Source: an uncultured Roseivirgaceae bacterium
GTDB lineage: Bacteria; Bacteroidota; Bacteroidia; Cytophagales; Cyclobacteriaceae
Reading direction: 5' to 3'
Assembly (NCBI GenBank): GCA_964493505.1
Contig: CAZBNP010000007.1
Coordinates: 70,392 to 134,391 of the forward strand
DNA length: 64,000 nt
This document shows, piece after piece, positions 52,860-57,734 of the stretch; within the stretch, counting starts at the first letter, position 1, and each line of letters begins with the position of its first letter. Position numbers and translations under genes: made by a program. A model generated the notes under the pieces. It did no database searches. It saw only the letters and a program-made list of their open reading frames with translations, and had not been told where the DNA came from.

Positions 52860-55800
52860 TTATTCACTTTGTAAGTATTCTAGTTGAATGACTGATTGAT
52901 TGTATTTATAGACAGCCTCGAGGAAACCCAGGCGCATTTCTGTATAGCGTTCGATACTCCGGAGGTACTGGAAGAAATCGATCTCACCGGCTTCGATCTG
53001 GCGGACCGCCGTTTGCTGGATGAAGGCTGCCTGATCAAGTCCTTCATCCCGGTAATAGCCGAGCAGTCGCTGATACTTCCGATAATCTGAGGTTGCCCTT
53101 CTTCGGGCATTGTGCAAACCGCGCGCTCCCAATTCAAGCTGCTGCTCCGCCTGCATAGCTCCGATCTTCGCTCTTTGAATATCCGATTGTCGTGGAGAAA
53201 ACCAGAGAGGAACGGCCACTCCCACGGCAAATCCCCGGAGCCCTCTGAAGCGAACGTCGGCTTCTGTAATGTTCTGACGAAAATACCCTAACCGGATTTC
53301 AGGAAACAGAAGAGCCTTCTCAAGCCGGGTTTGCATCTCACTTGCTTCAAGCTGCTTCTCCAATACCCTGATGGCCGGGTGATCGACGGTCGCCGTGTCC
53401 GCTATCGTGACAAGTGTCAGCAGCGTATCCAGTGCGGGGACAATGGCCTCGTCAGTCGAAAGCAGTAACTGTAGGTCGGCCATTGCCTGCACCAGGTTCT
53501 CAGACTGCATCAGGTGGTTGTTGCGCAACTCATGCAGACTACTTTCGATGAGTTTCTTCTCCAGCAAGCTGCGTTCACCCACCCTATATTGAAGGTCTAT
53601 ACGTTTCTCAAAATCGGCGTATTGCAACAATTGAGAACCCAACTCTTTTACTACCTGTCGGTAGTACATCCAGGTATGCCACGCATTACGCACTTCAAGC
53701 ACGAGGTCTCGTTGGTTCAACGCATCTCTTTCTTCCGCCAGCTGCACGTGATGCCTATTGATCCGTGCGCGCTGAACGTGTGCAGGAACACTCCCCAGGC
53801 TTTGCGTCACATCCAGCGAAGGATCGTGCTGATCGCTGTTGAGTTGTCCGTAGCGCAGGTCAATATCCGTCATCGGCAATTGTATCGCACTCTTCCGTTG
53901 AACCTTTTGTCGCTCGATCTCAAGCGAGGATATTCTCATACGAGGATTCGTTTCGACAGCAATCCCGACTGCTTCCTCTTCCGTCAGGACTCGCGAGGGT
54001 CGCTCCTGCGAAAAACCCGGAATACTGCATAGAAGCAAAAGTACGATCGTCAGTGACGGTCTGATTCGCCGCCGCGTGTTCCGCTCACGGTATTCTTCCA
54101 TCGACTTATAGAGCACGGGGAGCACGACCAACGTCAGCAGCGTAGCGCTTACCAGTCCGCCGATCACAACGGTAGCCAGTGGCCGCTGCACTTCCGCACC
54201 CGCTGTATTCGAGAGCGCCATGGGGAGAAACCCCAGCGCAGCAACCGAAGCTGTCATGACAACCGGACGCAGTCTGGTCATCCCCCCTCTGATGACGACA
54301 TCTTTGAGACCACCGTGTACCTGGGCTTTCAACTCGTTGAAATAGCTGATAAGCACAATACCATTCAGCACCGCCACACCAAACAACGCGATAAAACCAA
54401 CACCGGCGGAAATACTGAACGGCAAATCCCGAAGCCACAAAGCAAAGACTCCTCCTATTGCCGAAAGGGGGACAGCGGCAAAAATAAGAAAGGCATACCG
54501 GAACGATCCGAATGCGAAATAGAGCAGGATCACGATGAGCATCAACACGATCGGAATAGTGACCATGAAACGTTGCTTAGCTTTCTTAAGATTTTCGAAG
54601 TCGCCTCCATACGTTATATGGTATCCGGGAGGAAGGTCAAGCTTGTCGCCGAGCGCGATCTGCACCTCGTTTACCAGGCTTTCAATATCTCTTCCCCGCA
54701 CGTTTATCCCGAGCGTAATGCGTCGGCGTGCGTTTTCACGTGAGATTTGCGCGGGGCCGACCGATTCCGTTACCGAGACCAGTTCGGCTATGGGCACGAG
54801 TTGTCCGTAGCTGTCTTTTACAAAGAGGCCGTTCAGGTTGAACTTCGATCGTTGCTGTTTATTCAACCGCACCACCAGATCAAACTTTCTCTCTCCTTCA
54901 AACACAACTCCAGTGTGTTCTCCGGCAAACGCCGCGCGAATAACCGTGTTCAATGCCTCTACTGATATACCGCGCTGAGCCAGGCGCGGGCGATGATACC
55001 TGACCAGCAACTGTGGCAACCCCTCTGTCTGTTCAACGACAACATCCGCCGCACCGGGAATGTCAGCTACAATGTCTGCCGCGATAACTGCCTGGTTGTG
55101 CAGGACATCGAGATCCTCTCCATATATCCGAACCGCCACATCAGTTTTCGACCCCGTCATCAACTCGTTAAACCTCAGTTGTATCGGTTGTGTAAAATCG
55201 AATGAGGCGCCGATGATCGCCGAAAGTTTCTCCTCCATCTTGTCCACGAGCTCTTCACGCGTTTCCGCTGACGTCCACTCGCTCTTCTCCTTCATCACAA
55301 TCATAATGTCTGCGAGTTCAAAAGGCATCGGATCGGTGGGAACCTCAGCCGTACCGATCTTGGAAACCACCTGCCGGACTTCGGGAAAATTTTCAAGCAG
55401 AATGCGTTCGGCTTGTGTAGCGGTTCGCATACTTTCATCGAGCGATGTGCCAGCCGGCAACGTCATTTGCATGGCAATATCGCCTTCCTCCAGTTGGGGA
55501 ATAAATACGCCTCCCAGGCGCGTGAAGACAAAAATACTTACCACGAAAAGAAGAGCGGATACCCCTACCGTAATCCGAGGATAAGCAAGAGCGCCGCGCA
55601 GGCAAGGTTCGTAAACACGTCGTAGAGCGCCGACAATGCGATCGGAAAAATTCTTTTTCAGACTGATCGTCCGGCCGAGCAAAAGCGCGGAGAGGGCAGG
55701 CACGTAGGTAACCGATAGGATAAGGGCACCGAGTATCGCAAAGCTTACCGTCTGCGCCATCGGGCGAAACATCTTGCCTTCAATGCCTGTCAGTGTCATG

Positions 55801-57182
55801 ACAGGAATGAATACCACGATGATAATGAGCACACCAAACGCTGCAGTCCTGTAGATCGAAGAAGCAGACCGGACTACTACAGCATCCATCTCCGCCCGAC
55901 TAAGTGTTTTACCTGCATGATAGACCACGAACGCATGTAACACGCCTTCCACAATGATAACCGCGCCGTCTACTACGATCCCAAAATCGAGCGCTCCCAG
56001 CGACATAAGATTCGCCGAGACCCCAAAGAGATGCATCATGATAAAAGCAAAAAACAGAGACAGAGGGATAACGGAGGCAACTATGAGCCCCGCCCGCCAG
56101 TTGCCGAGCAAAAGTATCAGCACCACTATCACGATCAGCCCACCTTCCAGCAGATTGGTCATGATCGTCCGGGTGGTTCTACCGACAAGTTCAGACCGGT
56201 CGAGATAGGGTACAATACTGACACCCTTGGGCAATGATGCCTGAATCTCTTCTACCCGGCGATGGATATTGTCAAGTGTCTGCGAAGAGTTTGCGTTTTT
56301 GAGCATGAGCGTAATACCTCCGACCGCCTCTCCCTCGCCATTTTTTGTCATCGCACCATACCGCGGCGCATGGCCGTTTTCAATCGTCGCTACCTGCCTG
56401 AGCAAAACCGGCGTCCCCTCCTGCCGCACCACGATATTTCCGATGTCCTCCAAGTCCGCGACAACGCCTTCCGCACGTATATAGATAGCGTTGGGACCGC
56501 GATCCAGGTAGCTTCCACCGGTGTTCTGGTTGTTCGCCTTGAGTGCCGCAACCACGTCTGGAATAGTGAGACCAACGCTTCGGAGCCGCATGGGGTCAAT
56601 CGTAACCTGAATCTGTTTCAGGTATCCGCCAAAACTGCTAACCTCCACCACACCTTCAATGCCGGACAATTGGCGCTTTACGATCCAGTCCTGAATCGTG
56701 CGCAGTTCCATGGCGTCATACTCATGTTCAAATCCATCGTCTACAGCCAGCGTATATTGATAGATCTCGCCGAGTCCTGTAGTGATAGGCATCAGTCCAG
56801 GATGCCCCATCCCTTCGGGAATATCCTCAGCGGCGATAGCGATCTGTTCGCTTACAAACTGCCGTGTGTCGGATATTGAAATGTCGTCTTCGAAGACAAT
56901 TGTGACAACTGAAAGTCCGTAGCGGGAAACTGACCGCAATTCAATAACACCCGGGAGGTTAGCCATGGAAACCTCAATCGGATAGGTGATGAATCGCTCT
57001 ACTTCCTCCGCGCTTAGCGAAGGCGAGGTAGTGACAACCTGTACCTGATTGTTCGTGAGATCCGGTACCGCGTCTATCGGGATTTCATTCATAGCGAAGA
57101 TCCCCCCGCCGATAATGGCAAGCGTGAAGATGGCAACTACGAACTTGTTGTGAACCGAAAATGATATTACTCGTTCAAACAT
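52860..57182 (-). CDS. CusA/CzcA family heavy-metal RND transporter fused to a C-terminal TolC-like outer membrane factor domain
   Basis: IDAVPDLTNNQVQV, SLGALDFGIVVDG, RLRPVVMTA, AEVQRPLATVVIGG; about 400 extra C-terminal residues with an OEP pattern. Confidence 0.94.
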   Translation of the reverse strand: MFERVISFSVHNKFVVAIFTLAIIGGGIFAMNEIPIDAVPDLTNNQVQVVTTSPSLSAEEVERFITYPIEVSMANLPGVIELRSVSRYGLSVVTIVFEDDISISDTRQFVSEQIAIAAEDIPEGMGHPGLMPITTGLGEIYQYTLAVDDGFEHEYDAMELRTIQDWIVKRQLSGIEGVVEVSSFGGYLKQIQVTIDPMRLRSVGLTIPDVVAALKANNQNTGGSYLDRGPNAIYIRAEGVVADLEDIGNIVVRQEGTPVLLRQVATIENGHAPRYGAMTKNGEGEAVGGITLMLKNANSSQTLDNIHRRVEEIQASLPKGVSIVPYLDRSELVGRTTRTIMTNLLEGGLIVIVVLILLLGNWRAGLIVASVIPLSLFFAFIMMHLFGVSANLMSLGALDFGIVVDGAVIIVEGVLHAFVVYHAGKTLSRAEMDAVVVRSASSIYRTAAFGVLIIIVVFIPVMTLTGIEGKMFRPMAQTVSFAILGALILSVTYVPALSALLLGRTISLKKNFSDRIVGALRRVYEPCLRGALAYPRITVGVSALLFVVSIFVFTRLGGVFIPQLEEGDIAMQMTLPAGTSLDESMRTATQAERILLENFPEVRQVVSKIGTAEVPTDPMPFELADIMIVMKEKSEWTSAETREELVDKMEEKLSAIIGASFDFTQPIQLRFNELMTGSKTDVAVRIYGEDLDVLHNQAVIAADIVADIPGAADVVVEQTEGLPQLLVRYHRPRLAQRGISVEALNTVIRAAFAGEHTGVVFEGERKFDLVVRLNKQQRSKFNLNGLFVKDSYGQLVPIAELVSVTESVGPAQISRENARRRITLGINVRGRDIESLVNEVQIALGDKLDLPPGYHITYGGDFENLKKAKQRFMVTIPIVLMLIVILLYFAFGSFRYAFLIFAAVPLSAIGGVFALWLRDLPFSISAGVGFIALFGVAVLNGIVLISYFNELKAQVHGGLKDVVIRGGMTRLRPVVMTASVAALGFLPMALSNTAGAEVQRPLATVVIGGLVSATLLTLVVLPVLYKSMEEYRERNTRRRIRPSLTIVLLLLCSIPGFSQERPSRVLTEEEAVGIAVETNPRMRISSLEIERQKVQRKSAIQLPMTDIDLRYGQLNSDQHDPSLDVTQSLGSVPAHVQRARINRHHVQLAEERDALNQRDLVLEVRNAWHTWMYYRQVVKELGSQLLQYADFEKRIDLQYRVGERSLLEKKLIESSLHELRNNHLMQSENLVQAMADLQLLLSTDEAIVPALDTLLTLVTIADTATVDHPAIRVLEKQLEASEMQTRLEKALLFPEIRLGYFRQNITEADVRFRGLRGFAVGVAVPLWFSPRQSDIQRAKIGAMQAEQQLELGARGLHNARRRATSDYRKYQRLLGYYRDEGLDQAAFIQQTAVRQIEAGEIDFFQYLRSIERYTEMRLGFLEAVYKYNQSVIQLEYLQSE

Positions 57183-57300
57183 ATTGATTGATCATGATAT
57201 GGAAATGGAGTCGACCCCCTGTCAGGCGGTAGCTGCCATCCGTTCAGAATAATGGATTGATTGGGGTGCTATGCACACCACAGAAGAAAAGATAAACAGT

Positions 57301-57696
57301 CTACCCGACGGGGGGACCGCGGAAGGAGGTAGTGGAGGATAACGCTTGGTGCCGGGTCAATCCCGCGATACCCCCGTCGATAAACTCGGCGTGTACACCG
57401 GTCGCTGAAGCGGCAGTAATGGTAAATGTTAATGGGGGGAGATGCGCAATAAACCGGGATGAGAACTCAATCTCGGTATCGGCGTTCCTCTTGAAAATTT
57501 CAAGATGTCCCGTACCCAGGTCAGTGGAGAGTACCCTTAGTAAGAGATTGCTGTCTTCGAGGGAGAAAACACAATTATTGTGAACCAGGACGGCCTGCTC
57601 GTGGCTGACCTGCGCATGATGGTGGGGCACCACAGTATGCAGCATCGCAATGCCGTACGCCAGAAGGATCAATATGAACCGGCCCCAGGATTTCAT
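57301..57696 (-). CDS. His-rich upstream ORF with N-terminal hydrophobic segment and C-terminal RGPP (DUF2946/CruR-like architecture)
   Basis: ATG 57696: MKSWGRFILILLAYGIAMLHTVVPHHH...DLGTGHLE...SFRGPPVG*; 131 aa; 118 nt upstream of the czcA-like start. Confidence 0.78.
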   Translation of the reverse strand: MKSWGRFILILLAYGIAMLHTVVPHHHAQVSHEQAVLVHNNCVFSLEDSNLLLRVLSTDLGTGHLEIFKRNADTEIEFSSRFIAHLPPLTFTITAASATGVHAEFIDGGIAGLTRHQALSSTTSFRGPPVG

Positions 57697-57701
57697 TCCC
57701 C

Positions 57702-57734
57702 CAAAGATACAGCGAATGGCGGATAACATCCAAA
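57702..57734 (-). promoter_or_regulatory. Bacteroidota promoter for the uORF-czc transcript (probably leaderless)
   Basis: Minus strand TTTG (57731-57734), 21-nt spacer, TATCTTTG (57702-57709); ATG follows after 5 nt. Confidence 0.7.

Follow-up and report, generated by a model that had tools for sequence, protein, structure and literature searches.

The DNA analysed here, referred to as the window, is a 64,000-nucleotide stretch from an uncultured Roseivirgaceae bacterium of the Bacteroidota (assembly GCA_964493505.1, contig CAZBNP010000007.1, positions 70,392 to 134,391), and the system in question is a short upstream open reading frame (uORF) that precedes the metal-efflux genes czcA and czcB. 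The uORF ends with an Arg-Gly-Pro-Pro (RGPP) motif, and an initial annotation had proposed that the codons of this motif pair with the czcA leader, forming an RNA switch that a stalled ribosome would open. Our analysis identifies the uORF product as a convincing candidate for a ribosome-arrest peptide from a conserved family, and indicates that the proposed stem is probably not a working switch in this genome. All features lie on the minus strand, with window coordinates descending along the mRNA. The coding features are:

57301..57696, minus strand: uORF of 131 codons, member of a conserved czcA-upstream leader-peptide family
57310..57321, minus strand: Arg-Gly-Pro-Pro codons (CGC GGU CCC CCC), putative arrest motif two codons before the stop
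52860..57182, minus strand: czcA (CusA/CzcA resistance-nodulation-division permease) fused to a TolC-like outer-membrane domain, 1440 amino acids
51746..52867, minus strand: czcB-type periplasmic adaptor gene, overlapping the czcA stop by 8 nt

The uORF protein (MKSWGRFILILLAYGIAMLHTVVPHHH...STDLGTGHLE...SFRGPPVG) starts MKSWGRF..LHTVVPHHH and, as read from the translation, is basic at its N-terminus, with a hydrophobic stretch, FILILLAYGIAML, after it. R-G-P-P occupies residues 126-129 of 131, and a spacer of 118 nt separates the TAG stop codon (57303-57301) from the czcA ATG (57182-57180), whose start MFERVISFSVHNKF is conserved in relatives.

Protein searches retrieved homologues of the uORF with ends such as FRAPPVC and FRGPPQLA; these relatives were gathered from protein collections, metagenomes and genomes, and the named ones are Chryseosolibacter and Flammeovirgaceae, in line with a position of the lineage within Cytophagales. 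One layout was common to 63 of 63 parseable loci: a basic N-terminus and hydrophobic segment, H-x-x-x-P-H-x-H, a D/E-L-G-x-x-H-L-E-like motif, a variable middle, [LFY]-R-[AG]-P-P, one to five further residues and the stop, followed by a 40-183 nt spacer and a same-strand czcA with a conserved N-terminus. When 1.84 billion representatives were searched with a profile, 181 clusters were recovered. Among the best 150 of these 181, 131 representatives have R[AG]PP plus one to seven residues as their C-terminus (79 RGPP and 52 RAPP, with three residues the commonest tail), and 144 contain HxxxPHxH, for which the window protein has HTVVPHHH. The R[AG]PP motif is therefore kept among homologues within variable flanking sequence. 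Because the C-terminal [LF]-R-[AG]-P-P sits 1-7 codons before the stop (usually 2-3), the uORF is assigned to the RAPP/RGPP class of ribosome-arrest peptides, in which it is a convincing candidate that would be expected to arrest its ribosome. No Pfam family matched the window protein at E≤1, and NCBIfam likewise gave no assignment. DUF2946 (PF11162) had no match in the window protein or in any of 22 family members scanned. DUF6769 (gathering threshold 27 bits) did not match the window protein either and gave only sub-threshold full-length matches to family members (best E = 0.0056, 11-16 bits). The association with czcA agrees with published tables, in which CusA/CzcA genes lie downstream of 133 RGPP versus 4 AGPP uORFs, about 60-fold, and of 50 RAPP versus 7 AAPP uORFs, and in which most czcA-linked uORFs are classed as signal-peptide proteins (Fujiwara et al. 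2025). Two distant members, L008 (a Candidatus Limimorpha metagenome-assembled genome) and L022, ending LRAPPVS and LRAPPILS, precede genes other than czcA, namely a lipoprotein-like gene and a small membrane protein.

The mRNA around the uORF stop has a distinctive composition, described by two features:

57281..57300, minus strand: pyrimidine-rich tract ACUGUUUAUCUUUUCUUCUG, 80% pyrimidine, directly after the stop
57283..57360, minus strand: C>G bubble with 30 C versus 14 G (C/G 2.07, 98th percentile of 78-nt windows in the 64-kb window)

The initial annotation had pointed to a pyrimidine-rich tract right after the stop (UUUAUCUUUUCUUCUG, 57296-57281, 3' of the stop) as a possible Rho-loading site. 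This tract is present and proves to be a feature of the whole family: across family clusters, pyrimidines make up 67% of the 20 nt that directly follow the stop, versus 51% at control gene ends (p = 8e-9), and G makes up 8-15% of the first 10 nt. The C>G bubble, whose composition resembles that of a Rho-utilisation (rut) site, has the arrest site and stop codon at its centre. In a family meta-profile, C outnumbers G over an interval of about -60 to +60 relative to the stop (C-G +0.1 to +0.3), with values of about 0 at 588 control gene ends. The genome encodes rho (TIGR00767, 670 bits, above the cut-off). Its open frame of 555 residues (G000 contig C1:397979-399529) is longer than the 415 positions of the model, as would fit the N-terminal extension reported for Rho of Bacteroidota.

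The proposed stem involves four further elements, with the arms taken from fold predictions:

57301..57319, minus strand: 5' arm (M) of the stem
57212..57232, minus strand: 3' arm (D) of the stem, CU...GCCUGACAGGGGGUCG, the only G-rich stretch of the spacer, ending 29 nt upstream of the czcA ATG
57301..57327, minus strand: predicted mRNA footprint of the arrested ribosome, P-12 to P+14, with Pro codon 57315-57313 in the P site
57361..57379, minus strand: competing upstream arm (U), CGACGGGGGUAUCGCGGGA, codons D-G-G-I-A-G

The complementarity itself was confirmed on re-reading the sequence: CCCCCCGUCGGGU (57315-57303, the Pro-Pro-Val-Gly codons and the first base of the TAG stop) forms 12 of 13 antiparallel pairs, two of them G-U and with one C-A mismatch, with GCCUGACAGGGGG in the czcA leader (57227-57215), which ends 33 nt upstream of the czcA ATG as described. 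RNAfold extends this to an interrupted stem of 17 bp between 57319-57301 and 57232-57212 (57319-57317/57214-57212, 57315-57311/57219-57215, 57309-57303/57227-57221 and 57302-57301/57232-57231) with a duplex energy of -26.7 kcal/mol. The stem closes a long irregular hairpin that encloses the pyrimidine tract and a small internal hairpin, and is present in the minimum free energy (MFE) structure and centroid of 121-176 nt fragments (fragment z-scores -2.25 and -1.11).

How unusual this pairing is depends on the null model. A 12/13 match arose in 0.25% of dinucleotide-shuffled spacers for this 13-mer and in 2.1% for any 13-mer of the footprint, and the duplex energy of the stem was reached by 1-1.5% of shuffled leaders (p about 0.01-0.015). 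This leader-shuffle null was calibrated on 250 ordinary gene ends from the same genome (mean z +0.08, 4.8% at p≤0.05). With the leader left intact and the footprint shuffled, the stem had p = 0.13-0.19, and with a synonymously recoded footprint p = 0.15-0.17, such that 15-17% of recodings pair equally well. Leader-shuffle statistics alone overstate significance because shuffling breaks up G/C clusters, including the G-run, and leader shuffles as the sole null were therefore replaced by the footprint-shuffle and synonymous-recoding nulls. The stem thus joins a C-run, supplied by Pro codons, to a G-run of a spacer that is otherwise poor in G, which is suggestive, not compelling.

Longer folds disfavour the stem. 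Its probability is 0.72-0.88 with ≤30 nt of upstream RNA and ≤0.05 with ≥60 nt, because the RGPP codons then pair with arm U, which is 10 kcal/mol stronger. This competing helix joins 57379-57361 to 57324-57306 (the F-R-G-P-P-V-G codons) through 18 bp at -36.4 kcal/mol and lies within the uORF. The stem that the initial annotation had envisaged is therefore not energetically favoured in the ribosome-free message once at least 60 nt of the uORF are included. The U:M helix is the most extreme upstream pairing in the family (z = -1.73, p = 0.06) and is absent in close relatives; it is lineage-specific, because the family otherwise avoids such upstream pairing.

Stalling was modelled by forcing the footprint 57327-57301 to be single-stranded, its extent being derived from PMC10951233 and the standard size of a ribosome footprint, and the czcA start region was taken as -18 to +12. 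The opening energy of this region was 8.71 kcal/mol both free and stalled in the long context, and 7.7 free versus 7.0 stalled in the short context; the opening energy of -35 to +15 was also the same in both long-context states. One part of the proposed mechanism therefore stands, in that the predicted footprint of a stalled ribosome spans the whole 5' arm, while the consequence drawn from it does not: freeing the second strand is predicted to leave access to the czcA start unchanged in the long context, arguing against a SecM-secA-like unmasking of the start. The stem does not sequester the start region, as its 3' arm stops 29 nt short of the ATG. In long-context folds the leader segment GAUGGCAGCUAC (approximately 57229-57241), just 5' of the 3' arm, pairs with GUAGUUGCCAUC in czcA (approximately 57135-57147, V-V-A-I codons), so that in each of the states modelled a large loop contains the start codon.

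Conservation was examined in relatives. Three same-genus genomes carry the uORF-czcA pair (L038, L039 and L040, with uORF ends FRAPPVSL, FRGPPLA and FRAPPF), and the stem is absent from the MFE structure in all three; four further same-genus genomes lack the uORF. The closest uORF homologues share 39-50% protein identity, and only the leaders of L039 and L006 can be aligned to that of the window. The homologous duplexes in these two have energies of -13.0 and -18.4 kcal/mol, respectively, and are not in the MFE structure. In this alignment of the window, L039 and L006, 74% of cells pair versus 32-50% in slid controls, with the window row paired by construction, and no stem pair is altered on both sides. 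The stem is thus neither kept nor covarying in same-genus and alignable relatives. Covariation as support for the exact stem was dropped, given that all relatives are too distant, only two leaders align and neither has double changes. Lack of conservation and an unfavourable fold are the very outcomes that the initial annotation had named as refuting its proposal.

Across the wider family, complementarity between arrest site and leader modestly exceeds that of leader shuffles in the first 26 clusters (mean z about -0.9, Wilcoxon p = 2e-5; 4.5e-5 without the window), with no such excess for control windows 30, 60 and 120 nt upstream or at control gene ends. The centres of the leader partners are scattered between -6 and -139 relative to the AUG, and there is therefore no family-wide start unmasking. 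SecM-like unmasking as a family rule was ruled out, since stalling shifts the unpaired probability around the AUG by ≤0.07, and was kept for the short-spacer members only. This subfamily (L047, L073, L054, L065, L066, L078, L083, L050 and L068) has spacers of 44-64 nt and a czcA beginning MLxxxIxFSLKNKL. In its members UUUAGAGG, encoding F-R-G, pairs through 8-13 bp with a YCUYUAAA box whose position is fixed at 9-16 nt from the czcA AUG, on its 5' side. The share of paired cells is 78%, versus 26-56% in slid controls, and a stall is predicted to cut the opening energy of the start region by 3-7 kcal/mol. Covariation in this helix is not significant, with shuffles matching the observed scores, because both arms are nearly invariant. 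We regard the short-spacer helix as conserved complementarity, not proof of a switch. On the folding models, a CutF-like switch is plausible in these sister lineages, but the stem of the window is not a homologue of that helix.

Several smaller features accompany the operon:

57702..57709, minus strand: TATCTTTG, pattern match to the Bacteroidota -7 promoter element TAnnTTTG, putative promoter element
57262..57280, minus strand: small spacer hairpin UGGUGUGCAUAGCACCCCA, by fold prediction

Because TATCTTTG ends 5 nt ahead of the uORF ATG, the uORF mRNA is probably leaderless or nearly so. In relatives, the translation just 5' of the uORF ATG reads '..LYIR..M', which implies a conserved TATAT-like element. 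The long-spacer relatives L041-L045, L034, L039, L006, L026, L036 and L040 have a G+C-rich hairpin approximately 10-25 nt 3' of the pyrimidine tract, at the same relative place as 57262-57280 and without a U-run, which could be a pause or processing element. No Rfam family matched the spacer, and no intrinsic terminator was found in it. A mini-ORF of six codons, AUG AUC AAU CAA UAU GUU UGA (MINQYV*, 57175-57195, minus strand), overlaps the czcA start out of frame; relatives such as L039 have no AUG at that position. The TolC/OEP-like outer-membrane domain covers residues from about 1070 to 1437 of the czcA product in the same single frame, and a long czcA of the same kind is also found in relatives listed in the published RGPP tables.

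Two characterised copper systems offer the closest comparisons. In Bordetella pertussis, the gene for CruR (BP2923, DUF2946) precedes bfrG, which encodes a TonB-dependent transporter. RAPP is found three residues from the CruR stop, and stalling obstructs Rho at a C>G bubble reaching from the uORF to the spacer; the stall is relieved by copper, and regulation is bicyclomycin-sensitive (PMC9426467). The window shares with it a small, apparently exported uORF product bearing metal ligands, R-G-P-P two residues before the stop where CruR has R-A-P-P, a C>G bubble extending from the uORF 3' end into the spacer, no need for a start-masking hairpin, and a metal-homeostasis gene that would be regulated in cis. 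It differs in protein family (no PF11162 match, and HxxxPHxH rather than CxxC), in belonging to the Bacteroidota rather than the Proteobacteria and in having an efflux pump downstream. At this locus the parallel draws on base composition and the presence of a rho gene, from which we infer Rho dependence. In the cutFOG operon of Rhodobacter capsulatus, the nascent CutF peptide, which is exported and senses metal, carries a stalling-like Pro-rich motif at its C-terminus and keeps a stem-loop open that would otherwise shield the ribosome-binding site downstream; CutF-like genes often precede CusA/CzcA genes (PMC9973294). This is exactly the mechanism that had been proposed for the czcA leader; however, the stem here does not shield the start, is not favoured in the long context and is not conserved, and the peptide belongs to another protein family and is followed by a longer spacer (118 nt).

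Other RAPP/RGPP-class arrest peptides are ApdA, ApdP, ApcA and a set from Streptomyces lividans (PMC7897499, PMC10951233, PMC12992588). Like the window uORF, they carry R-[AG]-P-P near the C-terminus of a small protein encoded upstream of a regulated gene; they bear an export signal, which the window protein may also have, and start-masking hairpins were not found for ApcA, ApdA and ApdP either. The His-rich Bacteroidota family is placed in the class by motif and conservation. As in SecM-secA and MifM-yidC2, a ribosome arrested near the uORF 3' end would overlap one arm of a downstream mRNA structure. In those two cases, however, it is the Shine-Dalgarno sequence of the downstream gene that becomes sequestered, whereas in the window the 3' arm is positioned 29-50 nt 5' of the start codon, with no evident Shine-Dalgarno sequence. 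Shine-Dalgarno-led initiation is largely lacking in Bacteroidota.

We favour, at what we judge to be an even chance, a leader-peptide-controlled czcA(-tolC)-czcB operon in which arrest would be coupled to expression by Rho-type attenuation. The apparently signal-anchored, His-rich uORF peptide would arrest its own ribosome at RGPP, and the His/Cys/Glu-rich nascent peptide would set the length of the arrest, either by metal binding or by its own export. The arrested ribosome and any queue behind it would occupy the C-rich, G-poor, pyrimidine-rich tract spanning the arrest site and early spacer, and the occupied tract would hinder Rho-dependent termination before czcA, as shown for CruR. Because the downstream gene encodes an efflux pump, the arrest should last longer in the presence of metal (as in CutF), or the output logic would be inverted relative to CruR. 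The stem would be incidental, or at most an auxiliary, lineage-specific element; this is its most likely status because it is out-competed by the 18-bp helix, does not extend to the start region of czcA and is missing in close relatives. A number of observations weigh against this interpretation. The stem of the window is among the strongest arrest-site:leader duplexes seen, and an excess of arrest-site:leader complementarity persists in 42 clusters under footprint shuffles (mean z -0.59, p = 3.6e-4) and under synonymous recoding (mean z -0.36, p = 0.04; 0.06 without the window). The family also tends to avoid upstream pairing partners for the arrest site (mean z +0.38, p = 0.018), which argues that selection for downstream pairing exists somewhere in the family. 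The folds are purely thermodynamic and ignore ribosome traffic and co-transcriptional folding; arm U, which lies inside a translated frame, may often be ribosome-covered, and this would favour the stem. Finally, the C-rich composition partly follows conserved Leu/Phe/Ser/Pro codons, and the pyrimidine tract could serve another purpose.

That the stem is instead a true stall-opened switch of the SecM, MifM or CutF type, a long hairpin from the uORF stop to -29 of czcA that closes when the message is terminated or free of ribosomes and is held open by the arrest so that the freed leader allows czcA expression, seems unlikely to us. The presence of the stem in the MFE structure and centroid of local folds, equally good pairing in only 1-2% of shuffled leaders, the family excess that control gene ends and upstream control windows lack, the UUUAGAGG:YCUYUAAA helix of the short-spacer members with its predicted effect on start opening, and the CutF precedent all speak for it. 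They are set against a 3' arm that leaves predicted start access constant, a stronger competitor helix upstream, equally good pairing in roughly one in six synonymous recodings, scattered partner positions in the family, and a lack of both conservation in same-genus or alignable relatives and covariation. A related and similarly doubtful possibility is that the stem represents, in this lineage, a design shared across the family, in which a Zn/Co/Cd-sensing, His-rich nascent peptide arrests the ribosome and the arrested ribosome remodels the czcA leader, in short-spacer relatives through the Phe-Arg-Gly codons and the box about 10 nt before the start. We would give no better prospects to another explanation, according to which there is no RNA-level coupling element at all: complementarity and pyrimidine tract would be by-products of composition, the uORF product would be a small exported metal-binding protein, and any RGPP pause would serve its own targeting or folding, or would affect czcA via general polarity or mRNA stability. 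The weak window statistics with an intact leader, the lack of an Rfam family or terminator in the spacer and a composition partly set by conserved residues are in line with this. It accounts poorly for R[AG]PP near the stop in 131 of the best 150 representatives, always with a same-strand czcA downstream, for the 60-fold preponderance of RGPP over AGPP upstream of czcA, and for a non-coding spacer that is itself pyrimidine-rich and G-poor across the family. Least probable, and in our estimation very much so, is a three-segment, traffic-sensing attenuator in which M pairs with either U (57379-57361) or D (57232-57212), the choice being set by trailing ribosomes that cover U after prolonged arrest. 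The U:M and M:D helices are indeed mutually exclusive (-36.4 and -26.7 kcal/mol), and U:M is extreme within the family; yet the family avoids upstream pairing, U:M is missing from close relatives, and D pairs with czcA coding sequence in all long-context states, with start access constant.

Understanding of how bacteria turn on heavy-metal efflux when no dedicated transcription factor is involved is still partial. A recent answer has come from metal-sensing leader peptides such as CutF and CruR, worked out so far only for copper in Proteobacteria, and the locus described here adds a family of His-rich, RGPP-ending leaders before Zn/Co/Cd-type pumps in Bacteroidota. The concept (CutF, CruR and SecM) and the association of RGPP with czcA are already published; what is new is that the His-rich Bacteroidota family has been delineated, that the result for the stem is negative and that short-spacer relatives have a start-proximal helix. 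If the remodelled-leader reading were true, Bacteroidota would have a translational switch controlled by stalling, and its metal-sensing arrest peptide would use His instead of Cys as ligands. In this genome the eye-catching stem is poor evidence for mechanism and the better lead is the conserved pyrimidine-rich C>G tract, while in sister lineages the better lead is the start-proximal helix involving the arrest codons.

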